Assembly: GCA_963775895.1 (NCBI GenBank)
Contig: CAVZKL010000018.1
Coordinates: forward strand, 1-64,000
Direction: 5' to 3'
Origin: Candidatus Bathyarchaeota archaeon
Lineage (GTDB): Archaea > Thermoproteota > Bathyarchaeia > Bathyarchaeales > Bathycorpusculaceae
DNA length: 64,000 bases
The position numbers were made by a program, and so were the translations under genes. The notes beneath the pieces are model-generated. The model ran no database searches. It was given only the letters and a program-made list of their open reading frames with translations, and had not been told where the DNA came from. Shown one piece after another: positions 9,958 through 36,331 of this stretch (position 1 is its first letter; the number at the start of each line of letters is the position of its first letter).

Positions 9958-10518
9958 TCACTCCCACCACTTGACCAACCGTTCATAGGCCAGTTCTGTA
10001 GCCTTCATGTTCTTCTCTCCGGCCGCACCCGGCCAAGTTTCCTGCACGGCTTTTAATACGCTGCCCAGTTTCACTTCGTCGGTTGCCTTGGCAAAAGCGC
10101 CCAAAATAGACGTGTTAACAAGTGGTTGACCAGCGACAACCAAGTTGAGTTCAAGGGCTATGCCAGTTGCATCAACAGAAGCAACCCGCCAGCAGCTCAA
10201 CCCCATTTCCTCCGGCCTCTTCTTCGTGTTAATGACAACTGCTCCGTTCTTCTTCAAGCCTTCAGTGACGTCAACAACTTTGTAGATGTAGGGATCCAGG
10301 ACTATGACGTAATCAGGATTGTAGACCTGACTATGAACAAGTATTGGTTCACTGCTCAGTCTCGCAAAGGCTTTCACTGGCGCCCCACGCCGCTCAGCTC
10401 CAAAATACGGAAACGCTTGAACCGACTTACCCTCGATAAAAGCCGCATGAGCCAAAATCTCAGCCGCGGTGACACTGCCCTGTCCACCTCGACCGTGGAT
10501 CCTGATCTCCTTGAGCAA
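9958..10518 (-). CDS. porG: Pyruvate/2-oxoacid:ferredoxin oxidoreductase gamma subunit
   Basis: EIRIHGRGGQG, FGAERRGAPV. Confidence 0.95.
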   Translation of the reverse strand: MLKEIRIHGRGGQGSVTAAEILAHAAFIEGKSVQAFPYFGAERRGAPVKAFARLSSEPILVHSQVYNPDYVIVLDPYIYKVVDVTEGLKKNGAVVINTKKRPEEMGLSCWRVASVDATGIALELNLVVAGQPLVNTSILGAFAKATDEVKLGSVLKAVQETWPGAAGEKNMKATELAYERLVKWWE

Positions 10519-10576
10519 ACCTTCTCACTTCCGCTGAGAAATGAACCATGGACAAGCCAGCCTTATTAGTGTTAGC

Positions 10577-12406
10577 TCAAACAAACAATAAAAATATCAT
10601 CAATAGTAGCCCTGCACTTAAGAAAACAGGAAGAACAGATTTCTTCGCTGTTTGGAGACTTTTATCAATAAGGCGACATAACGTTTCAAGCTGATGAGCT
10701 CCCAAAACTGTGACGTCCTTGACGGTGACACTGCCACAAGCTGCACTTGCAGTTTCCAAGTTGCCTATTGCAGCCAAAGTTGCTTCTTTTACGTAGCCCA
10801 TTAGCCTCTCCTTGTCCATAACTTCTCCAACTGGATGATAACCGTGCCCACCAAGTATCAATGCACTCACCGCATGCGTATCGGTCGTGAAGATTTCGCC
10901 TTCATTCACGCCCAAGGAACTCAGAGAAGACAGAATCTCCTCGCGGAAACCTGAAACCACGTTATTACCGTCAATAACGACGTAGGCGGCCTTCTGACCG
11001 CCACACTGGACTACGATGACCGTGATGCCCCCTGCCCCCATACCGTCTTCTAGACTGAATTCTTTGGGCACCACAGTGGCTGCGCCAACTTGAAAAGGCA
11101 GCTGTTTCATGGAAGCAGCTTTTCTTAGGCATGCGTTTGTCACGTCCTTCAATGAATCCAATGACTTCTGCATCTCCGCATCTCCGTCAATACTGTTATG
11201 CGCATTGACAACTGCACAAAGATCCAACCCGTTCCTTCGAGCTTCTTCACTAACAAACAAACCCAATTCAGGCGGAAGATCTTCAATGGTTCTGGGAGCA
11301 AGGGTAAATGAAATCAATACGGATTTCCCGAAAACCTGGCAACAGGCAGTGGCCAGACCGTTTGTGACTTTGACAAAGGGTGAGCTTTTGCCGTCAGAGA
11401 CTCTAAGGTCGCGAACCGATGTTACAAGCTGGCCAATGATTTTCTGATTCTGCTCCTGTGAAGCCAAATCAAACTCGTGCCCCATCAGTCCATGCGGAAC
11501 GCATGCGATACACCCCGATTCTTTCTCTAAAGCAGCTTTGATCAATGATGGCAGAAGGCTGCTTCCAATATTCTTGAAAGGCCCAGGATGAACAGACGGG
11601 ACAACTATCACGGTTTCGGTTTTGGAAGAAACGAACTTCAAAAAACCCGTTTCAACATCTTTCTTTTCCCCCAGCTTCTCTAGGAGCTGCTCAAATGGCG
11701 TGTTAAGACCCAACACCCAATTGAGCATGAACGCCCTGAAAAGGGTCAATGAGCGCACTCCCAAGGTCTGTTCACCTATGCGATCAAGAAGGTGGAGAAA
11801 AACATAACTCGAGACCAACGTCAAGGTGATTGAGAAAAAAATAAAACCCAACGTCGGAATCGCGTTCAAGCGCCCAAGTTCAGACCAAAACGCTAGGAAG
11901 AGAGCTAAAGTGGTAAGGGGCTGTAGAAAAGTGGCAATAAAAATCTTGGAGTAGCTTAGAGAGGCTGTCGAAGAAAAGACCACCATGCGCGCGATCGTGG
12001 CTGCTGAGTAACCGAGAAGGCAAAACCTGATCCACCAACCTAGATCGTTGAGCACTATCGAAAGGAGAGATCCTAACAAGATGAAGAAAAGCCAGATCAT
12101 CCAAGAAAAGAGTGAAAGAACCATCTCCCGACGAAGATTGAAGATGGTCTCTCGCTTCAGAATCATCGCATTTGTGAAGTAATCTACGGCTATTTCGAAG
12201 ATGAAAACTGCCACACCAAAGAAAAGGCTGTAGGCTAGCCCATTTAGGGAAAGAGACAACGTCAAAGTGGAAAGGAAGCCTCCGACAATACATGAAACCG
12301 CCAGCAGAGAAACGACCACTCGGTCTGATGGAAGTCTGAAAAGCGATGAATACAGCCTCACAGCACTGTCCATGGATTGCTTCAATGAGTCTTCAGTGGC
12401 CACCAA
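10577..12406 (-). CDS. DUF2070 family membrane protein
   Basis: N-terminal TM bundle; HPGPF, NAHNS, DGNN, TTDTH motifs. Confidence 0.85.
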   Translation of the reverse strand: MVATEDSLKQSMDSAVRLYSSLFRLPSDRVVVSLLAVSCIVGGFLSTLTLSLSLNGLAYSLFFGVAVFIFEIAVDYFTNAMILKRETIFNLRREMVLSLFSWMIWLFFILLGSLLSIVLNDLGWWIRFCLLGYSAATIARMVVFSSTASLSYSKIFIATFLQPLTTLALFLAFWSELGRLNAIPTLGFIFFSITLTLVSSYVFLHLLDRIGEQTLGVRSLTLFRAFMLNWVLGLNTPFEQLLEKLGEKKDVETGFLKFVSSKTETVIVVPSVHPGPFKNIGSSLLPSLIKAALEKESGCIACVPHGLMGHEFDLASQEQNQKIIGQLVTSVRDLRVSDGKSSPFVKVTNGLATACCQVFGKSVLISFTLAPRTIEDLPPELGLFVSEEARRNGLDLCAVVNAHNSIDGDAEMQKSLDSLKDVTNACLRKAASMKQLPFQVGAATVVPKEFSLEDGMGAGGITVIVVQCGGQKAAYVVIDGNNVVSGFREEILSSLSSLGVNEGEIFTTDTHAVSALILGGHGYHPVGEVMDKERLMGYVKEATLAAIGNLETASAACGSVTVKDVTVLGAHQLETLCRLIDKSLQTAKKSVLPVFLSAGLLLMIFLLFV

Positions 12407-21649: not shown

Positions 21650-22790
21650 CTAGAAACGCTTGAGTCTTTTGACGACTTTTTCGATACGATCGAGAGCTTC
21701 CTCAAGTTGAACGTATGGCACAGTGAAAGAAAGCCTGATGTATCCCTCCCCTAAGCTTCCGAACATGGACCCTGGCACAGTTATGACGTGAGCTTCTTTC
21801 AATAGGAATTCCGAGAATCGGTCTGATGACATCTTGAATGACCTGATGTTTGGAAACGCGTAGAAAGCACCCCTCGGCAATGTGCACTTCATTCCATCGA
21901 TTCTATTCAGTCTCTCATGAACTAGATCTCGTCGCCTCTTGAATTCTTTCATCATCTTGTCAACAGACCGCTGTGGTCCCGTCAACGCCTGCGAGTGCTA
22001 TTTGCTGCGCGACACTGTCTACACAGGCGATAAAGTATTGATGCAATAGCCAGAGTGGAGCAATCAGTTCCTTTGGCCCATAGATGTAACCGACTCTCAG
22101 TCCAGTCATCGCATAGGTCTTCGAGAAAGAGCCCACGACAAGTGTACGTTCTCGCATTCCTGGCAGACTGCCCATGCACTCATGTCTTCTACCGTCATAG
22201 ACCACCTTCTCGTACACTTCGTCTGAAATCACGACCATATCACGTTCTGTAGCAATTTCTGCGAGCTGTATGGACTCCTCGTGTGAAAGAACCGCGCCCG
22301 TGGGGTTGTTCGGAAAATTGAGTAACATCACGCGTGACTTAGGTGTGAGCAGTGACATCACGTCACGCCTGGATGGTCTAAACTCGTTTCTCTCAAGCAA
22401 AGGGATGCCAATCGCGCGGCCTTCTGCCAAGGTCACGCATGGCTCATAGGCGGTGAAACCCGGGTTGGGAATAAGCACTTCATCTCTCGGGTTCAACAGG
22501 CCAAGCATGGCCAAAGAAATCGCCTCTGTTGCACCAACTGTAACCAAGACCTCAGTTTCAGGATCATATTTCAGCCCGTAGTCGAGAAAGGCCTTTTCTG
22601 TAAGAGCCCTGCGCAATTCGGCACTTCCGTTCGTCGGTTCATAACGGGTTCTTCCCTCGGTTATAGCCTTCCAACCTGCTCGCAGAGCTCTCTTAGGAAC
22701 CGAGAAATCGGGCTCGCCCAGGCTCAAATTAATGGAACTAGGCGTATCTCTCGCCAAAGTGAAAAACCGCCCCATTCCACCCTGTTTCAC
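21650..22790 (-). CDS. Class I/II PLP aminotransferase (frameshift near 21985; start uncertain)
   Basis: GEPDF, NFPNNPTG, DEVYE, SFSKTYAMTGLRVG; C-terminus GAFYAFP...YIRLSF. Confidence 0.92.
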
Positions 22791-22966
22791 CCGTTTCAGG
22801 CGTCTAGCAGGTTTCCATAGCTGAACGGTCTCTCCCTCCCACGACTAATTGATTTTACCCAAAATAAAATTCTTGTGCTCCCTCTCAACTCGCACAGACT
22901 CCTCAGAATCGATACGCTTAAGAGCGCAGCCCGTATACAAACCTGTATCCATTTGCACATACCGCG

Positions 22967-23443
22967 GTGATGCCAGTTTTGAAGCTAAAAGATAACGTCC
23001 AATCATGGCTATTAAGCTCGCTAAACGACCCAATAGTCAAAATAATCTCCAAAAACAGTCATTTAACGGCAACACAGCTCGAAACACTGCTCATAGACAT
23101 CTTGTCCGAGAATATAGCCGCCAAATCGCTAAAATACGACGAAAAAGCTCGCTTAAGACTAACCAAGGCACAAATAAGCCGTGGAGCCTTCAACAGGACC
23201 CTAAAACAGGCCAAACAAAACGTCACAAAATCAATTTACACAGTAATACTCCTAGGCTACTTAGGACTCTTCGAGACCACAACTCTGGATCCCTACCTCG
23301 AAATAGCCAACAAGTTGCACACATATCTAGAGGCCTACAAAAGTGCCCCTCACACCACAGAAGACCTTGCTGAACGCCTCAAACTCATCGAAATGATGCG
23401 AGATGAGCTAGAGAACAGCTTAAAACAGCTCTCAAGTTCATAA
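22967..23443 (+). CDS. Origin-adjacent hypothetical protein with HTH-like segment
   Basis: LTATQLETL...ISRGAFNRTLKQA resembles a sigma70-r4/Tfx-like HTH; intact 158-aa ORF. Confidence 0.65.
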   Translation: MMPVLKLKDNVQSWLLSSLNDPIVKIISKNSHLTATQLETLLIDILSENIAAKSLKYDEKARLRLTKAQISRGAFNRTLKQAKQNVTKSIYTVILLGYLGLFETTTLDPYLEIANKLHTYLEAYKSAPHTTEDLAERLKLIEMMRDELENSLKQLSSS

Positions 23444-23454
23444 ACAAGCCCTCC

Positions 23455-23756
23455 GTGACATCACAAATCACACACAGGACGCGACCACTATCTGAACGTT
23501 TGAACGGTACAGAAGAATAATCTTGATTAAGCCGTCAAAAGTCAAAAGACGCCCAAATCTAGCCTCTCGTTGGACCATGCCTCGTTCGTCTGAAATGGTG
23601 TGTGTTTGAACATCCTTGTGACCTGTGACATCATACTCGCCGTCTCTAACGGAAAGTACCATAAATCTTAAATGGTTGATGGGCAAATTGTGATCTGTGA
23701 CGCAACATGTGTGAGTCACGTCTGATCACGGGAGTATCACAGGAGGATATCACGTG
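23455..23756. repeat. Cluster of TGTGA/TCAC boxes between the origin-adjacent genes
   Basis: GTGACATCAC 23455, TGTGACC-TGTGACATCAT 23617, TGTGATC-TGTGACG 23689, GTGAGTCAC 23711, then TGATCAC, TATCAC and GATATCACGTG to 23756. Confidence 0.7.
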
Positions 23757-24452
23757 GATGAGTTAACGCTCACGCTGGTGGGCTTTTTGCTTGCCGTCAC
23801 TGTCTCGGCCTCTATCCTGTATTACCAGAGGCTTCGTCGAGCCCAGAGAGAGTACGAGAAGGCACGGAGCGCTGTGGACGATGTTCTTTTGAGTTTCAAC
23901 AGGCAATTTGAACGCGAGGACAAGAGACTCGAATTTATCGCTTATAAGGTGGAAGCTCTCACCTCAAAGGTCGATAGTGGTCTTAGCATGTCCGAGGACG
24001 TTTCGAAAAGGATGGATGTAGTGCAATCCAAAATCAGTATCGAAAGTGAAGGGAGATCGCAGATCACGCAGCGACTTTATGATGTCGAAAAGAAGGTAGG
24101 TGACCTCACAACATCACAGGAGGTACTCATGAATCGAGTCTCCAGTCTGGAGCAACGGCCGCAGCAGATATTGACTACGCCAGAAGTGAACCTCCAAGGG
24201 GTCATACCCATCAGAAGGGAGAAAGCGATGTCTCAGCTGACTGATACTGAAGTATCGGTGCTCGAAATGCTCGCTGCCGAAGGCTCGAAGACCGCTCCAG
24301 AGATCAAGGAAAGAGTCAAGCTGAGCAGAGAGCATACTGCTAGGCTGATGAAAAACCTGTACGAGGAAGGCTACTTAGAGAGGGAAACAGGGAAGATCCC
24401 TTTCAGATATAGCGTGAAGAAGGAAATGGAGAAGCTTCTTAAAGAAGACTGA
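23754..24452 (+). CDS. Membrane-anchored coiled-coil winged-helix protein
   Basis: N-terminal TM (LTLVGFLLAVTVSASILYY), heptad-rich middle, C-terminal wHTH LTDTEVSVLEML...TAPEIKERVKLSREHTARLMKNLYEEGYLER; GGAGG upstream. Confidence 0.8.
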   Translation: MDELTLTLVGFLLAVTVSASILYYQRLRRAQREYEKARSAVDDVLLSFNRQFEREDKRLEFIAYKVEALTSKVDSGLSMSEDVSKRMDVVQSKISIESEGRSQITQRLYDVEKKVGDLTTSQEVLMNRVSSLEQRPQQILTTPEVNLQGVIPIRREKAMSQLTDTEVSVLEMLAAEGSKTAPEIKERVKLSREHTARLMKNLYEEGYLERETGKIPFRYSVKKEMEKLLKED

Positions 24453-24480
24453 AAGTCAGGCTTCACAACCCGCCTAGCTC

Positions 24481-24933
24481 TTAACCCTCGCCGAGAATGT
24501 TATCTAGGGTGCCCGTGGTCTCAGTGTTGCTTGGGGAAGTGCCGGGAGCCAACTTGTACTTCAGGCTGTTTGATGGCCCAGTTCTTTGCAGGATTCCTTT
24601 GTTCGTCATTCTTGCCAAATACGTCGCCACTGTACTCAGGTTTATGGGTTCCTTCAGTTCTTGTTCATATATCATCTGGACTTCTCTCGAGGAGAACCAA
24701 ACGAGTGGAAAGTGTTTCTGAACAACGCCGCGAGTTCTGTCAGACTTGGAAGCTTCAATGGTCGTTCCAGGGTTGTTACTTATAGGGGAAGGCATGCCGG
24801 CCCCCCCTCCCAGAAGTTCGACCAAGTCCAGAAGGCGCATCGCTTTGTCCCGCGTAATCTGCCCTTCAAAACTCAGAGAGTATTTGTTGCCCTCGCTGTC
24901 GAATAGTTCAACGCGCATTCTTCTGGCAGGCAT
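24481..24933 (-). CDS. Origin-adjacent winged-helix protein with small N-terminal domain
   Basis: FSSREV...INLSTVATYLARMTNKGILQR...KYKL (BlaI/CopY-like wHTH); N-terminal RVELFDSEGNKYSLSFEG. Confidence 0.75.
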   Translation of the reverse strand: MPARRMRVELFDSEGNKYSLSFEGQITRDKAMRLLDLVELLGGGAGMPSPISNNPGTTIEASKSDRTRGVVQKHFPLVWFSSREVQMIYEQELKEPINLSTVATYLARMTNKGILQRTGPSNSLKYKLAPGTSPSNTETTGTLDNILGEG

Positions 24934-24958
24934 TTTCTATATCCTTCTAGTGCCTTTG

Positions 24959-25253
24959 TTCACAACTTCACAATTCACAAGTTATAGGTGTTACGGTGAA
25001 ATGGAGGAGTGTGCACAGTCGCAAATTGGGCTTCGATTTTGAAACTGAAGGTTCCCTGCACCCTTTTCATGATCTCAAAGATGACAAGTTGCGTGGAAAC
25101 GGAAAACGGCTTAGGATTCAGTTTGGAACCTGAATCTCCAGTAGAAGAGTAGGGGTGGGCACTTCACAGAAAACAGCCAAGAAAGGGTCAATAAAGTACG
25201 GAATGGTACCTCAGAACAGACATGAGGCAGTCAACTTCACAAGGAGTTCACGA
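24959..25253. repeat. TTCACAA direct repeats upstream of the 24481-24933 gene
   Basis: TTCACAA at 24959, 24967, 24974 and 25236; variants TTCACAG 25163, TTCACGA 25247. Confidence 0.7.
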
Positions 25254-25745
25254 ATAACGCGCGCGAAACGAGAGGAGTGATGCGTTCTAGAGGCTATTTG
25301 TCGTGTCAGCCTATGTAACTAGAGGATATAGTATTGAACTGCAGCGAGACGCCTGTAGCTTGATGTCATCTATGAGAAGTGATATGATATAATTAAAGAT
25401 GATCAGCCACCCGTGCATTTCCATTGGAATAGTAACCTGACTATTCATTCTGGTTGACCGTTTGGCAAGATTTTGTAATCTGTATCTAAAATGTTTAATT
25501 GGAATACTTATAACAGGTTAATGCTGATTACCTGTCACAGTATATTCCTGTTAATAATCAGGAATCATCATTCTTCTAAACAGCAATGTAATATTCCAGA
25601 GGAAAGTGTGGGGTGTGTGTGGGTGTCATATCAGTTGCTCATCGTTCGGGGATTTGCGTTCTCTTCAGGATAATTGTGATTTACATTTAGATTTCTGTAC
25701 GGCAGAGTTTATGTTTTCCAGAGGAAAAAGAGCCGTTGCTACTGA
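25135..25745. other. oriC: Replication origin (oriC): ORB elements flanking an AT-rich unwinding element
   Basis: ORB on minus strand 25407-25430 (TTCCAATGGAAATGCACGGGTGG), ORB on plus 25593-25614 (TTCCAGAGGAAAGTGTGGGG), TTCCAGAGGAAA 25716, degenerate TCTCCAGTAGAAGAGTAGGGG 25135; AT-rich 25431-25592; directly upstream of cdc6. Confidence 0.9.
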
Positions 25746-25763
25746 AACTTGATTGGTGATGCA

Positions 25764-27020
25764 ATGACTGACCCAGCGTTACTTGATGCCGTGTTTGACA
25801 GATTCGTGAGTAGTGCAAGAATTTTCAAGGACCGGGAAGTCTTGCGCCATGATTACCTGCCAGTTAGGTTGCCACATCGGGAGGATCAAATTCAGCAGCT
25901 CGGAGAAACTGTGGCACCTTTACTAAGAGGTGCGCGGGGGTCAAACGTTTTCATCTACGGGAAGACTGGAACAGGGAAGACTGCTGTCGTAAAGTATGTC
26001 CTCAGTCGCCTCGAGTTCAAAGCCAAGCAGTTTAGTGCACCGATCAGATTCTGCTACGTCAACTGTCGGCTGACAGGCTCCGATTACCGTGTCCTTGCGA
26101 GTCTGTGCCAGAGTCTTGGCATTCAAGTTCCGTTTACAGGGTTGTCTGTTGGTGAGGTATTCGACAGGTTTAGAACAGGCTTGGATATGTCTGGTGTAAT
26201 CTTTATGGTGGTTCTGGATGAGGCTGATGCGCTCATAAAGGCGAAGGGTGATGGTCTTTTTTACGAGCTCACGAGAATGAACGAAGTTTTGAGGAGGAGT
26301 AAGGTTACTCTTGTTGGGATTTCGAATGATCTGCGGTTGAAGGAGTTTTTGGATCCTCGCGTTTTGAGTTCGTTGAGTGAGGAAGAAATGGTTTTCAGAC
26401 CTTATGACGCTGGAGAGTTGAGGAATATTCTTGCCGAGCGTGCACAGACGGCGTTTTTAGGGGACGCGTTGTCCGATTCCGCGCTAGGGCTCTGTGCCGC
26501 TCTCGCCGCTGCTGAACACGGAGATGCCCGTCGAGCCTTAGATCTTCTTCGTGTTGCGGGGGAGGTGGCTGAGAGGAGGGGGGATGGTTCGATCACTGAG
26601 GAGCATGTTCGGGATGCCGAGAAGCGTATTGAACACAATAGAGTTGTTGAGGCGTTGGCAAATTTGACTTTGCACTCTAAACTTGTTACGCTTAGTATTT
26701 ACCATTTGGGCAGAGTTGGCGCGAAGGGTGCGATCACTGGCGAGATATCTGAGGTCTACAATGAGTTGAGCGGCGAATTGGGGATTACGCCTTTGACTCA
26801 ACGGCGGTTGAGTACGTTGATCAATGAGCTCGATGCGATGGGTATTCTTAACGCTAAGGTTGTCAGTATGGGAAGGTACGGACGGACGAAGAAGATTCGG
26901 CTCGAAGTCGCTCGGAGCCTGATCCACGACGTGTTTGCAGGTGACACCAGGCTTGGTCGACTTGTCGATTATCAGCCACGGTGTCTCGTGAAGTGTGTTG
27001 AAGGTCGGGGGTCTTCATAG
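25764..27020 (+). CDS. cdc6: Orc1/Cdc6 replication initiator
   Basis: LPHRE, Walker A GKTGTGKT, VLDEAD, GDARRALDLLR, C-terminal wHTH with GRYGRT. Confidence 0.97.
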   Translation: MTDPALLDAVFDRFVSSARIFKDREVLRHDYLPVRLPHREDQIQQLGETVAPLLRGARGSNVFIYGKTGTGKTAVVKYVLSRLEFKAKQFSAPIRFCYVNCRLTGSDYRVLASLCQSLGIQVPFTGLSVGEVFDRFRTGLDMSGVIFMVVLDEADALIKAKGDGLFYELTRMNEVLRRSKVTLVGISNDLRLKEFLDPRVLSSLSEEEMVFRPYDAGELRNILAERAQTAFLGDALSDSALGLCAALAAAEHGDARRALDLLRVAGEVAERRGDGSITEEHVRDAEKRIEHNRVVEALANLTLHSKLVTLSIYHLGRVGAKGAITGEISEVYNELSGELGITPLTQRRLSTLINELDAMGILNAKVVSMGRYGRTKKIRLEVARSLIHDVFAGDTRLGRLVDYQPRCLVKCVEGRGSS

Positions 27021-28631
27021 GGCTCCTTTTATGAAGCTGGAGATTGTGGTGGAGAAGTTGGGATTTTTGTCGAATGGGAGAATGGTCACTTCTAGGGTTT
27101 GAAGGTTCACCACGGGAACCTTGGCTGGGGTTGGTTTGAAGCCGTTTCTTTTCATGTAGCCAGTTTGCTCCTGCCAGCACCCTGAGTTTACTAGCAGAAC
27201 TCCGCGATAGTTTGCGTATTCTAAGGCGTGGACGTGTCCTACGTGGAAAATGTCGGGAACGTGTTCGATCACGAGAGAGTCTCTGCTTTCAGGTGAGATC
27301 GGGGTCTTTCCTCCATACAATGGTGCTAAGTGTCTTGCCTGCAGGAGTAGACGCATGGATTTCTCGGGGTGGTTGTGGTTCATGCCGGGAACGGTTGAGA
27401 TTACGTCGTCGAGGCTTCGGCCGTGGAACATTAGTATCTCGACGCCGTGGAGGTTGAGTGTGCATGGGTTTCCTAGGGAGTGGATTTTTCGTGATTCTTG
27501 GAGTGTTTCCAAAAACGTGTTTGCTATGGCGGGCTGAGGCAGTGCTTTTCTGGGGGCGTCATGGTTACCTGGCGTGATGATGACTTCAATGTAATCAGGG
27601 ATTTGTTCGATGTATTTTGAGGCGAGTCTGTACTGTTTGTTCACGTCTCTTATGGCTAGCTCTGCTGCTTGGTTGGGGTATATGCCGATGCCGTCCACGA
27701 TGTCTCCTGCTATGAGTACGTATTTCACGTGGCTTGCGATGTCGCGCATTCTGTCGTCGCCGTACTTGCAGTTGAGCCAGAGTATGAACCGATTGAATGC
27801 TTCTCGTGTGAACAGTGAGCTTCCTATGTGCAAGTCTGAGGTGAGCACCGCGTAAACTGGAATTGAGGCTTTGTGTTGAGGTCGCTGGGCGACGTCAGGC
27901 AGTATTATGTCTTCGGTGATGAGCAGGTTGCTTCTGGTCTTTAGAACGTCGATGCAGATGACTTGATCGAGCATCAGCTGGCTGGCTTTCTTCTGAACTT
28001 CTTGAGAGGCGTTTTGCGGTATGAGGACGGTCGCGGATGCTTTCAAGTCTTCGACGGTTAAGATTGCTTTTTGTTTTGATTCTCTCTTGTCTGTGATCAT
28101 TCCGATGATTTTGAGTCGTGTGTTGGGTTGGGCTTTTATGGCGTCCATTATGGAGGTTGCGCTCTTGACGTCCATTCTTTGTCTCAGCAGCTTCTCCATT
28201 TGTCTGAACCTGCTCTGGAAGTATTTCAAATAGTCGTCGATGGTTCCTGCTGTGTCAATCTTTGATCCTGGGTCGTCGAGTACTTTGATGTTGGAATCGA
28301 TTTCTTTGGCGTAGAGCTGAGGGGGCTTCTTTGGTTCAGATGTCAATGGGGTTCGTTCTTGCGGGGGTTCTTTGAGTCGCGGTTCCATCTCTTGCGTGAC
28401 AACCTCTTTGTCGGGTTCCTGAGGTTTCAGCATCTGTTCTAGGAAGTTTTTTTCGATGAACAGTGGTCTCTCTGTGAGATTGTTCATTTGTTTGATTGCT
28501 TCGAGGACGATTGACGCTGGGTCTTCGGTTGAAGATACCATGTTGAGAAACTCGAATGCCTCTTTGTTTAGTTGGTAACCTGCAGAGATCGTCAGTTCGA
28601 CGGCCTTCTGAAGCTTGTCAGTTTCGTTCAT
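27015..28631 (-). CDS. polB: DNA polymerase D small subunit DP1 (3'-5' exonuclease)
   Basis: SDLHIGS, GDIVDG, PGNHD, FHGRS, RHLAP, GHVH, NSGCWQ; likely start ATG 28631 (MNETDKLQKAVE). Confidence 0.96.
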   Translation of the reverse strand: MNETDKLQKAVELTISAGYQLNKEAFEFLNMVSSTEDPASIVLEAIKQMNNLTERPLFIEKNFLEQMLKPQEPDKEVVTQEMEPRLKEPPQERTPLTSEPKKPPQLYAKEIDSNIKVLDDPGSKIDTAGTIDDYLKYFQSRFRQMEKLLRQRMDVKSATSIMDAIKAQPNTRLKIIGMITDKRESKQKAILTVEDLKASATVLIPQNASQEVQKKASQLMLDQVICIDVLKTRSNLLITEDIILPDVAQRPQHKASIPVYAVLTSDLHIGSSLFTREAFNRFILWLNCKYGDDRMRDIASHVKYVLIAGDIVDGIGIYPNQAAELAIRDVNKQYRLASKYIEQIPDYIEVIITPGNHDAPRKALPQPAIANTFLETLQESRKIHSLGNPCTLNLHGVEILMFHGRSLDDVISTVPGMNHNHPEKSMRLLLQARHLAPLYGGKTPISPESRDSLVIEHVPDIFHVGHVHALEYANYRGVLLVNSGCWQEQTGYMKRNGFKPTPAKVPVVNLQTLEVTILPFDKNPNFSTTISSFIKGAL

Positions 28632-28896
28632 CGGCTGCAGGTTCTCCTTTCTCATTTGCTTCTCAGGGTGCACTCGAGGTGTTGACGCTTTCTTTCTGTT
28701 GTATTTCCTTCTCTGGCTTTTAACGCGTTTGCTTTTGATGCCCTGCAACTTTGGGTCTTGGGATCTTTGGTAACAAGTGTGTGGTTGCAGTAAGTTTACT
28801 GCTGGCATTGAGTGTTGAGGTCGACTGCTGGAAGATTCTTGGTGGGCTCAAGATAATGGGGATCAGGTGGTCTCTCGTTGCTTGGGTGGCGGGGGA

Positions 28897-29112: not shown

Positions 29113-30096
29113 GTGCGGATGAATGAACTGCGTAGGGTTCAGCGTACGACTGGCGGAACTTTTTTTGTTTGTTTGCCGAAGTCTTGGGCTGATCGTTACA
29201 ACCTTCAGCGCGGGGCGGTCGTCGGGATCAGTGAGAGCGCGGAGGGGAAGCTTGTTATTGACGCGAGATACGGAGCCGAGCCCTCACCTAAGACTGCGGT
29301 TTTGGAGCCTGGTCCTTTTCTGGGGCGTGAGATAATTGCGAATTACCTGCTTGGCGTTGACGTTATACGGGTTCAGGGAAAGGAGCGCGTTGGATTTGAG
29401 GTTCGGGAGGCGGTTAAGGGCGCTGTTGGTGGGTTGATCGGGTTGGAGATTGTTGAAGAGGATAAGTCTGGCATAGTTTTGCAGTGTCTTTTGGAGCCTT
29501 CTGGCTTTCCGCCTGAGAAAATTCTTCGACGGGCTTACGCTATCGCGGCGGGAATGCATCGGGACGTGGTCAACGCGTTTGTTGAGGGAGAGTCTCAGCT
29601 GGCAAAGAGTGTGATGGCTCGAGACAATGAAGGCAACAGGCTCTACTTCCTTCTTGTTCGAATATTGAGGACGATAATACAGAACCCGGGGTTGAGCCAA
29701 AAACTTGGCGTGGGCCCTATTGAATGTCTTGACTACCGGTTGGTTGCGAGTTTGGTGGAAGCTATAGGGGATGAATGTGTGCGTGTGGCACAGAAAACGG
29801 TGGAGTTGAAGGGCACAAAACCCGATAGGGACCTGGGGAAATTGTTCATGGATTTTCAGGGTGTTTGCTTCGCGGCGCATGAAAAAGCTTTGACAGCGTT
29901 CTTGACGGGTGACATCGACTTGGCGGAAAAGGTGCGAGCTATGCGCAAAGATGTTGAGAAGGAATTCGCGAGTATCGAGGGGCTCGCTCAGACCCAAGCG
30001 ATTGAGGTTGTTCCTCACATTTTGGCGATAGCCTCGTTTCTAAGGCAGATATATGAGCACAGTGTGGACGTATCGGACTTGGCTGTTCCCCGATGA
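29113..30096 (+). CDS. phoU: AbrB-PhoU phosphate uptake regulator
   Basis: RRVQRTTGGTFFVCLPKSWA AbrB domain; two PhoU repeats (RLYFL, EAIGD). Confidence 0.9.
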   Translation: MRMNELRRVQRTTGGTFFVCLPKSWADRYNLQRGAVVGISESAEGKLVIDARYGAEPSPKTAVLEPGPFLGREIIANYLLGVDVIRVQGKERVGFEVREAVKGAVGGLIGLEIVEEDKSGIVLQCLLEPSGFPPEKILRRAYAIAAGMHRDVVNAFVEGESQLAKSVMARDNEGNRLYFLLVRILRTIIQNPGLSQKLGVGPIECLDYRLVASLVEAIGDECVRVAQKTVELKGTKPDRDLGKLFMDFQGVCFAAHEKALTAFLTGDIDLAEKVRAMRKDVEKEFASIEGLAQTQAIEVVPHILAIASFLRQIYEHSVDVSDLAVPR

Positions 30097-35499: not shown

Positions 35500-36331
35500 G
35501 TGAACAAAAACGCATTCCAGAACTCACAGTCCGTCTCAATATCATATTGGTTGCAAGAAAGGTGACCTTGCCAAGTATCTGATCGTTCCCGGAGACCCTG
35601 ATCGAGTCCCAAAGATCGCTCAATCATGGGATTCAGTCAGGGAGATCGGGGCTCACCGTGAGTTTCGGAGTTGCACAGGAGAGTACAAGGGTGTCGCTGT
35701 TTCTGCGCTTTCCAGTGGAATTGGCCCAGCCTGCATGGCTATCGCGGTGAACGAAGCAGCGAACATCGGAGTGAAAACGTTCATTCGGGTGGGCAGCACG
35801 GGTGCTATTCAACGAAACATCAGGTGTGGCGACGTGATAATATCCACTGCCGCGGTGCGTCTGGATGGCACGAGCAACTGTTACGTGATTCCCGAGTTTC
35901 CAGCCGTGGCAAGCTATGAAGTTGTCATGGCACTGATCACAGCGGCGGAGGAATTAGGAATAATCAATTACCACGTTGGAATAACCGCAACAACAGCTGA
36001 TTTCTACGCAGGACAGAACCGCTGCTCCCCAGCAGGCCATCTTCCCTTAATGGACAACTTGATGCCGATGCTTCAGAGGGCCGGTGTGTTGAACTTTGAG
36101 ATGGAAACGGCGACTCTCTACACGCTGGCTGAGCTTTTCGGGTTGAGAGCAGGCGCCGTATGCGCCGTGTACGCAAACAGGTGTACAGACGAGTTCGAGG
36201 CGGGGGCTGGAGAGGAGAACGCTATTAGGATAGCGAACGAAGCTGTCAAGATACTGAGCGGTTGGGACGCAACGAAGAGAAAGAGGAGAAAACGGTGGCT
36301 CTTCCCGTCTATTGTTTGCCAAGGACAGTAG
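35500..36331 (+). CDS. udp: Uridine/nucleoside phosphorylase (start uncertain)
   Basis: Upstream in-frame QYHI...PGDPDRV...HREF, SGIG, RVGSTG, NFEME. Confidence 0.92.

Follow-up and report, generated by a model that had tools for sequence, protein, structure and literature searches.

Three small genes beside a bathyarchaeal origin

This work deals with three open reading frames (ORFs), called A, B and C, and with the short repeats around them, which lie beside a replication origin in a 64,000-nucleotide stretch of DNA (the window; positions 1 to 64,000 of contig CAVZKL010000018.1) from a Candidatus Bathyarchaeota archaeon whose genome assembly of 1.77 Mb is 88.8% complete and is the scope of all genome-wide motif and gene counts given below. 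According to a review (PMC4010727), an archaeal Orc1/Cdc6 origin has an AT-rich region between inverted origin recognition boxes (ORBs) beside the cdc6 gene. The window follows this plan. ORB1 (25135..25159, + strand) consists of TCTCCAGTAGAAG and a G-run, with the conserved block T.TCCAgTaGAAg...AGGGGTg; ORB2 (25406..25430, - strand) is inverted, also has a G-run and is conserved in a 21-locus alignment; the AT-rich stretch behind it (25431..25593) is the likely unwinding element, with a GC content of 0.32-0.33 at 25450-25599, between ORB2 and ORB3; and ORB3 (25594..25616, + strand; TTCCAGAGGAAA plus GGGGTGTG) as well as a mini-ORB in the cdc6 leader (25716..25727, + strand) are conserved. 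The orc1/cdc6 initiator gene itself comes next (25749..27020, + strand; Cdc6_lid 4.5e-25, Cdc6_C 4.7e-25), and the gene for the small subunit of DNA polymerase D (PolD; 27015..28808, - strand; DNA_pol_E_B 1.5e-22) is by synteny the outer flank of the module. The three ORBs, the mini-ORB, the AT-rich stretch and cdc6, and the cumulative GC skew, which reaches its minimum at 23-24 kb of the window, are sequence features that identify the origin as one of the archaeal ORB/cdc6 type, as a preliminary description of this DNA had recognised.

The comparisons draw on several samples. The near set holds the 80 best related loci, of which 79 are titled Bathyarchaeota, Bathyarchaeia, Bathyarchaeales or Bathycorpusculum and one "Thermoproteota archaeon". 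Because the genomes of this set are kin, the comparison was widened to 20 loci of other families; another 8 loci, likewise of other families, were inspected separately, and 401 Thermoproteota genomes were sampled for phylum-wide searches with B and C.

Gene A (22967..23443, + strand) is, at the coordinates first given, an ORF for an all-helical protein of 158 aa and no known family; translation probably begins at the TTG at 22979, since the homologues start with MKLK. Identity across the 80 loci is 66-84%, a profile search of 1.84 billion representatives collected 361 clusters, and the AlphaFold2 (AF2) model has seven helices at a pLDDT of 79.6. There was no Pfam or NCBIfam match to A, no match by PDB sequence or profile search, and no Pfam family common to its relatives (0 of the 35 scanned). 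Foldseek gave only matches with E>0.7, to sigma region 4, GerE and TFIIB; the target TM-scores for SigD4, sigma-E region 4 and GerE are 0.53-0.67, but with E of 1.7-3.8. A lead from the Atlas search (0.79), to a cluster in which 14% of the members carry Sigma70_r4, is not significant, and it is by eye that the LT.TQLETLLI...ISRGAFNRTLKQAK stretch resembles sigma region 4. The label "helix-turn-helix (HTH)-like", which the preliminary description gave to A, thus has no statistical support.

Gene B (23754..24452, + strand), an ORF that lies exactly where it had been placed, codes for 232 aa with an N-terminal transmembrane helix, a coiled coil indicated by weak matches and a C-terminal winged helix of the TrmB/MarR type. 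Residues 4-22 are hydrophobic, with a mean Kyte-Doolittle value of 2.22 against at most 0.48 in the other 19-aa windows beyond residue 40, and are followed by YYQRLRRAQ; a hydrophobic N-terminal helix with basic residues after it is present in 87 of 95 B homologues, the 8 misses being starts called too late. Association of B with the membrane is predicted from this transmembrane helix. The winged helix at residues 161-221 scores above the Pfam cut-offs for TrmB (32.8 bits, cut-off 25.6), MarR (28.3, 24.6), MarR_2 (28.5, 27) and HTH_27 (23.8, 22.2), and it is nearly invariant among more than 4000 B relatives of equal length; the MerR family is absent among the 25 Pfam matches listed. Two of the three parts of the architecture first proposed for B, the membrane helix and the winged helix, are thereby borne out, but for the coiled coil there are weak matches only (SMC_prok_B, E 0.0037; DUF7310; CENP-F_leu_zip), and the length of the predicted segment varies between lineages.

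Two side observations concern the extent of B. At 24441-24477 of the window B stops 8 residues early (KED, then the stop codon), and the frame read from 24442 gives KKTESQASQPA and a stop, which is how the 240-aa relatives end; the last ~10 codons are displaced by a single additional A within an A-run, either as a real frameshift or as an assembly error. Seven f28/g113 genomes (G297, G291, G333, G363, G207, G243 and G369) have a B-like match in open frames of 120-137 aa that share the strand of C and stand ~700 bp away from it, and these frames are too short for a membrane helix plus a coiled coil and may therefore represent a soluble form.

Gene C (24481..24933, - strand) codes for 150 aa. 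The AF2 model (mean pLDDT 72.9) shows a beta-beta-alpha domain (1-41), a disordered linker (44-60) and a winged helix (63-128), and the 41-aa N-domain is conserved. Foldseek with the winged helix found RosR, MecI, BlaI, Fur and MarR at E of 3e-3 to 3e-2; a PDB profile search returned nothing below E 0.15, and the Atlas returned hypothetical Bathyarchaeota clusters only. C is a generic winged helix. Of its earlier description as a "BlaI/CopY-like" winged-helix protein, the fold and the coordinates stand, but the family does not: the Penicillinase_R match (18.7 bits) is under the cut-off of 22.6 and covers residues 84-126 only, the NCBIfam CopY_TcrY match reaches 11.7 bits where the cut-off is 121.95, and the domain order differs, so membership was rejected. 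Proteins of the BlaI/MecI/CopY family carry their winged helix at the N-terminus, ahead of a dimerisation domain at the C-terminus, whereas the winged helix of C is C-terminal and follows the beta-beta-alpha domain and the linker. C resembles them in its fold, nearest to RosR, MecI and BlaI, and in the close short half-sites over its own promoter.

Conservation of the arrangement

Across the 80 loci of the near set the gene order is nadE, nitrilase, (aminotransferase), A, B, C, origin, cdc6, PolD small subunit and PhoU, and the part from A through B, C, the ORBs and cdc6 to PolD is kept in 80/80 as far as the contigs reach. A is present in 79 of these loci, C in 76 and cdc6 in 71, and all misses are at loci cut by a contig end. 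In the 20 loci of other families, a profile placed A beside or close to B in 19, tblastn found C in 15, and cdc6 adjoins the module in 14; a further two loci stop at the chromosome end, one at the contig end just past an ORB. Archaeal AmoA was present in four of five distant genomes tested. The AmoA-positive loci keep A, B, C, ORBs, cdc6 (~40% identical) and PolD together, and nadE, nitrilase, aminotransferase and PhoU are gone from these neighbourhoods.

At phylum scale, 130 of the 401 Thermoproteota genomes in the sample gave a match to the B profile (E up to 1e-10), and at least 106 of these 130 have C no more than 3.5 kb from B (hand collation of position tables). A single copy of C is present in 258 of the 401 genomes; in several entire families searched, none was found. 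The preliminary description had staked its proposal on the conservation of the trio next to cdc6 and ORBs, and this was found in 80/80 Bathyarchaeia loci, as far as the contigs reach, and in 14/20 loci of other families; the latter, which include the AmoA-positive genomes, also bear out its suggestion that similar genes flank cdc6 in Nitrososphaeria. The link to cdc6 is thus kept widely, but it is not universal, as C has neither cdc6 nor an ORB-like site nearby in 4 of the 8 further loci. As a separate observation, one genome of the same order (G384) has an adjacent B-C pair twice, on different contigs (C58:4291-5308 and C1:44776-45794), which may reflect two origins, a duplication or a mixed bin.

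The absence of a ParA-like gene from the window, noted earlier, agrees with the Pfam search: PF13614 has no match on the window contig (C18) and matches on contigs C17 and C25 only. No ParA-like neighbour of the trio was found among the genes tracked by tblastn in the related loci, whose other ORFs were not Pfam-scanned. Another ATPase does occur inside the module of some relatives. In L025 (10716-13275) B and C are separated by the genes of a HerA-like ATPase (513 aa; DUF87, HAS-barrel) and a NurA-like protein (343 aa), both on the strand of C; HerA-NurA stand between B and C in 35 of 77 cases (76 loci plus the window; DUF87 2.5e-8), and four further loci have intermediate B-C gaps, some with HerA remnants. 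The window has no HerA-NurA between 24452 and 24481, and the L025 HerA matches nothing in the window's own genome, which is 88.8% complete; other DUF87 genes are on other contigs of that genome. The motifs show no enrichment between C and NurA. HerA-NurA was considered as the missing ATPase and rejected, as it is present in fewer than half of the loci, is absent from the window and has no motif sites before NurA; it is treated here as an accessory insert.

Two repeat classes and their candidate binders

One TGTGA/TCACA core had been described in both intergenic spaces of the trio. The repeats are real and clustered, but a single shared motif was rejected: the base after TGTGA splits the sites into two cleanly separated classes, class I (TGTGA[C/T]) and class II (TGTGAA), strictly divided between the two spacers. 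Class I has 7 sites in the A-B spacer against 0.25 expected (P 1e-8) and none in the C-ORB2 stretch, while class II has 5 sites in the C-ORB2 stretch against 0.39 expected (P 5e-5) and none in the A-B spacer. The ORB2-cdc6 part has 2 class I sites against 0.28 expected (P 0.03) and no class II site. Related loci give the same picture, with class I at 26.1/kb in 79 A-B spacers, 0.8/kb in 71 C-cdc6 spacers and 1.41/kb in the whole-locus background, and class II at 0.8/kb, 7.6/kb and 0.94/kb, respectively. TGTGA is not enriched window-wide (141 found vs 159 expected). The promoter of B is the strongest class I cluster of the 1.77-Mb genome, the promoter of C is its only class II cluster of at least 3 sites within 100 bp, and for the exact sequence TGTGANNTGTGA all 4 matches in the window and 4 of the 5 in the genome fall at this locus. 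Two distinct motifs imply two separate binders instead of one shared array.

The positions of the sites relative to genes and promoters were followed in alignments of 21 sequences each for the A-B side and the C-cdc6 side. Class I site 1 (23455..23473), an inverted GTGA/TCAC pair with a third TCACA, lies 17 bp after A and is conserved at a constant position. Site 2 (23616..23634, + strand; TGTGAC-C-TGTGAC, then TCA) follows at ~161 bp, upstream of the TATA box of B. The inferred TFB-recognition element (BRE) and TATA box of B (23658..23673, + strand; ACCATAAATCTTAAAT) fit the archaeal promoter consensus and show the conserved pattern aCCatAA..cTTAAAt, site 3 (23688..23701, + strand; TGTGAT-C-TGTGAC) lies over the expected transcription start of B, and three further TGTGA/TCAC half-sites fill the B leader (23710..23753) ahead of GGAGG and the start codon. 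Spacings could be scored in 72 of the 80 loci: from site 1 to site 2 the median is 161 bp (interquartile range (IQR) 159-163) across unconserved A-rich DNA, and from site 2 to site 3 it is 70 bp (IQR 68-72). TTAAA stands 20-21 nt before site 3 in 58 of 70 loci scored, and the length of the whole A-B spacer is constant at ~290-325 bp. On the other side, three TTGTGAA sites on the C strand (24959..24980, - strand) lie between the ATG of C and its inferred TATA box (24982..24989, - strand; TTATAG on the + strand, within the conserved block TTATAGcTgTTatGGTgAA), and 2-3 such sites are found at this place across the aligned loci. A further class II site (25163..25169; TTCACAG) abuts ORB1, and a class II pair (25236..25254; TTCACA-N5-TTCAC(G)), to which relatives add an inverted TGTGAA, lies with that copy ~75 bp past it.

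Loci that have only some of the genes bear on which protein goes with which motif. Where C is missing (L090, L091, L095), the ORBs come directly after B, there is no TTCACA, and the TGTGA sites upstream of B are kept. TGTGAA persists in L111, where C and cdc6 occur but A and B do not. In L107, B stands without A and the TGTGA array is retained; L106, with A and C but no B, shows no such array. The recognition helix of B, SREHT(A/S)RLMKK, is invariant from Bathyarchaeia to the AmoA-positive genomes, and TGTGAT likewise, while in the AmoA-positive genomes the helix of C is altered and the origin-side sites are GTTAACA palindromes. By these patterns the A-B array is a candidate target of B, rather than of A or C, and the origin-side sites are a candidate target of C; the pairing of B with class I and of C with class II would be the simplest fit.

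Some details of these lineages deserve mention in their own right. In the AmoA-positive loci L096-L099, over ~350 bp on the origin side of C, GTTAACA replaces TTCACA both at the C promoter and between two tandem ORBs, and the TGTGAT repeats extend into the 3' end of the A-like gene. The C-less Bathyarchaeia lineages of f7 have an unrelated small ORF with an HTH-like stretch just past the second ORB, in the usual place of C (L091, ~10200-10620; L095, ~10490-10662; B on the + strand), which may be a replacement origin-side factor.

A possible origin-to-membrane link and its alternatives

We regard it as quite possible, though somewhat short of an even chance, that C is an autoregulated origin-binding factor and that B together with A pins an origin-proximal site to the membrane. 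In this proposal C would bind the TTGTGAA sites, repressing itself because they lie over its own start site and occupying the left half of the origin because class II sites stand beside ORB1, where it could modulate the access of Orc1/Cdc6. B would be a coiled-coil dimer with one N-terminal membrane helix and a cytoplasmic C-terminus, and its winged helices would bind the TGTGA[C/T] dyads. It may set its own level, since one dyad covers its start site, and its binding may pin origin-proximal DNA to the membrane, since the 300-bp three-site array is the only such cluster of the genome. ORB1 is 1.4 kb away from this array, a distance that grows to ~4 kb where HerA-NurA lie in between. A, the near-constant companion of B, may be its co-binder or regulator; a complex prediction from alignments of A with residues 24-232 of B scored 0.00, which is no evidence either way. 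The preliminary description had cast B as an origin-to-membrane tether with A and C as partners on the repeats; B does have the predicted parts of a membrane tether, but the single shared array has given way to two motifs. With a likelihood again a little under one half, we consider the trio an old origin-linked module of three small predicted DNA-binding proteins with two private sets of sites.

Known systems offer partial parallels. Researchers have found, as set out in the sections of a preprint that describe them (bioRxiv 10.64898/2026.03.06.710092), that RacA of Bacillus subtilis, RocS of Streptococcus pneumoniae and RicO of Staphylococcus aureus each combine an HTH, a self-associating coiled coil and a membrane-binding element with sites near oriC, and that the membrane helix of RocS can be replaced by an unrelated transmembrane domain. 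B is predicted to have all three kinds of parts, and its putative site cluster is 1.4 kb from the ORBs. However, the order in B is reversed, with the membrane helix N-terminal and the DNA-binding domain C-terminal; that domain is of the TrmB/MarR type and not of the MerR type; and the membrane element is a predicted true transmembrane helix instead of an amphipathic helix (RicO, RocS) or a DivIVA partner. The trio also differs in having one compact three-site array beside B in place of scattered sites and a near-constant second protein, A, and in being archaeal, not from Firmicutes; no sequence homology was found.

Within the archaea, SegAB of Sulfolobus is a proposed segregation system. SegB works with a ParA-like ATPase, SegA, and is not known to have a membrane anchor. 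It is, in a 2024 review (PMC7617429), a site-specific DNA-binding protein proposed to act in chromosome segregation, and the same review states that how SegAB drives segregation, and whether it is essential, is not understood. Unlike SegAB, the trio has no PF13614 match on the window contig and none beside it in the loci inspected. In haloarchaea, extra repeats near the ORBs have been proposed to bind regulatory factors (PMC3936714, in its treatment of these elements); as far as that treatment goes, the control elements are G-rich repeats and extra ORBs that titrate Cdc6, whereas the trio has a dedicated winged-helix protein with its own candidate motif, and haloarchaeal control, working by cis elements and Cdc6 titration, was rejected as a protein analogue. 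WhiP, a Cdt1-like winged-helix initiator in the corresponding section of a review (PMC4010727), resembles C as a winged-helix protein encoded beside an origin, namely Sulfolobus oriC3. It takes the place of cdc6 as the origin-adjacent initiator gene in that account, whereas here cdc6 and canonical ORBs are present and the putative C sites are distinct from the ORBs; Pfam, NCBIfam and PDB searches gave no sequence or family match between WhiP and A, B or C.

Several observations weigh against a tether and an origin-binding role. A site over its own promoter is a feature of any autorepressor, a single nearby cluster does not prove tethering, and the promoter positions of B and C are themselves inferred from the archaeal consensus. 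RacA and RicO, in the preprint's description (bioRxiv 10.64898/2026.03.06.710092), use many sites spread around the origin, while the trio locus has one cluster. The assignment of motifs to proteins depends on few independent lineages (one locus each for B only, A plus C only and C only, and three related loci without C), and in the f33 loci L101 and L102 B stands after the upstream gene with no TGTGA array. Related genomes are, moreover, non-independent samples; the 8 further loci of other families divide into 2 with cdc6 beside C, 2 with ORB-like sites only and 4 with neither; and in G050 B and C are 13 kb apart.

The plainest alternative, which we hold to be possible but on the unlikely side, is that B and C are self-regulating transcription factors, each repressing only its own promoter, with no role in replication or segregation; the membrane helix of B would then serve signal-dependent sequestration, and the proximity to cdc6 would come from slow change of gene order at origins. 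Operator-like sites overlapping both inferred start sites, the common winged-helix folds of B and C and the 4 of 8 further loci in which C is away from cdc6 or an ORB-like site all agree with it, and the PolD small subunit and PhoU are syntenic in Bathyarchaeia too, so that part of the conservation is plain synteny. Against it, the AmoA-positive loci lose nadE, nitrilase, aminotransferase and PhoU but retain A, B, C, cdc6 and PolD, and conserved class II sites lie outside the C promoter, abutting ORB1 and ~75 bp further; a regulator whose sole clustered target is its own gene has no evident regulatory purpose, and a fixed 161-bp spacing across unconserved DNA exceeds what a simple operator needs.

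A second alternative keeps the origin but gives up the mechanical link: C, perhaps with B and A, would gate the binding of Orc1/Cdc6 or the expression of cdc6, and the anchor of B would hold a repressor near or away from the origin at set times of the cell cycle. We find this unlikely, more so than simple autoregulation. The class I array lies at least 1.4 kb away from the ORBs and could not occlude them directly over such a distance, and there is no meaningful motif enrichment between ORB2 and cdc6 or at the cdc6 promoter, as the counts above show; yet class II sites touch ORB1, GTTAACA lies between two ORBs in AmoA-positive loci, C is single-copy in the 258 genomes of the phylum sample that have it, and the constant partners of the trio are cdc6 and the PolD gene. 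Very improbable, finally, is that the A-B spacer is the gene of a structured non-coding RNA (ncRNA), or that the trio was left behind by a mobile or defence element (HerA-NurA) which had inserted next to the origin. The constant spacer length would suit the former and the HerA-NurA genes in 35/77 the latter. The ncRNA was rejected, since a search of 22500-26000 against Rfam at E up to 1 found nothing, shuffled sequences fold as well as the spacer core does (z 0.02 and -0.24) and the middle of the spacer is unconserved, and against a mobile element the trio occurs with or without HerA-NurA, keeps its place across classes and has no motif enrichment between C and NurA.

The boldest form of the proposed tether is that the locus codes for the first archaeal origin-to-membrane anchor, ancient and common to Bathyarchaeia and ammonia-oxidising Nitrososphaeria, in which B (with A) would clamp a three-dyad "centromere-like" array of fixed geometry beside oriC to the membrane while C, set against ORB1, would gate Orc1/Cdc6; on present sequence evidence we consider this doubtful. 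If true, the trio would tie initiation to the position of the origin, and perhaps to segregation as well, in archaea with no known segregation machine at the locus. How archaeal chromosomes are positioned and separated is largely unknown, and the locus is a concrete candidate with homologues in cultured ammonia oxidisers. Even if the tether fails, C is a new candidate accessory factor of Orc1/Cdc6 origins, given its presence in 258/401 genomes and sites that touch an ORB. A description of the trio was not found in the full-text literature searched, which takes in few subscription journals.

Two minor features lie further out in the window. Beyond the PolD small subunit, 29113-30096 codes for a PhoU-domain protein with an AbrB/MazE-like N-terminus; a PhoU-domain gene is absent at this place from the AmoA-positive loci and present in 59 of the 80 Bathyarchaeia loci, most misses being at locus ends. 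At 35709-35720, 10 kb from the origin, there is a lone exact palindromic mini-ORB-like site, TTCCACTGGAAA.

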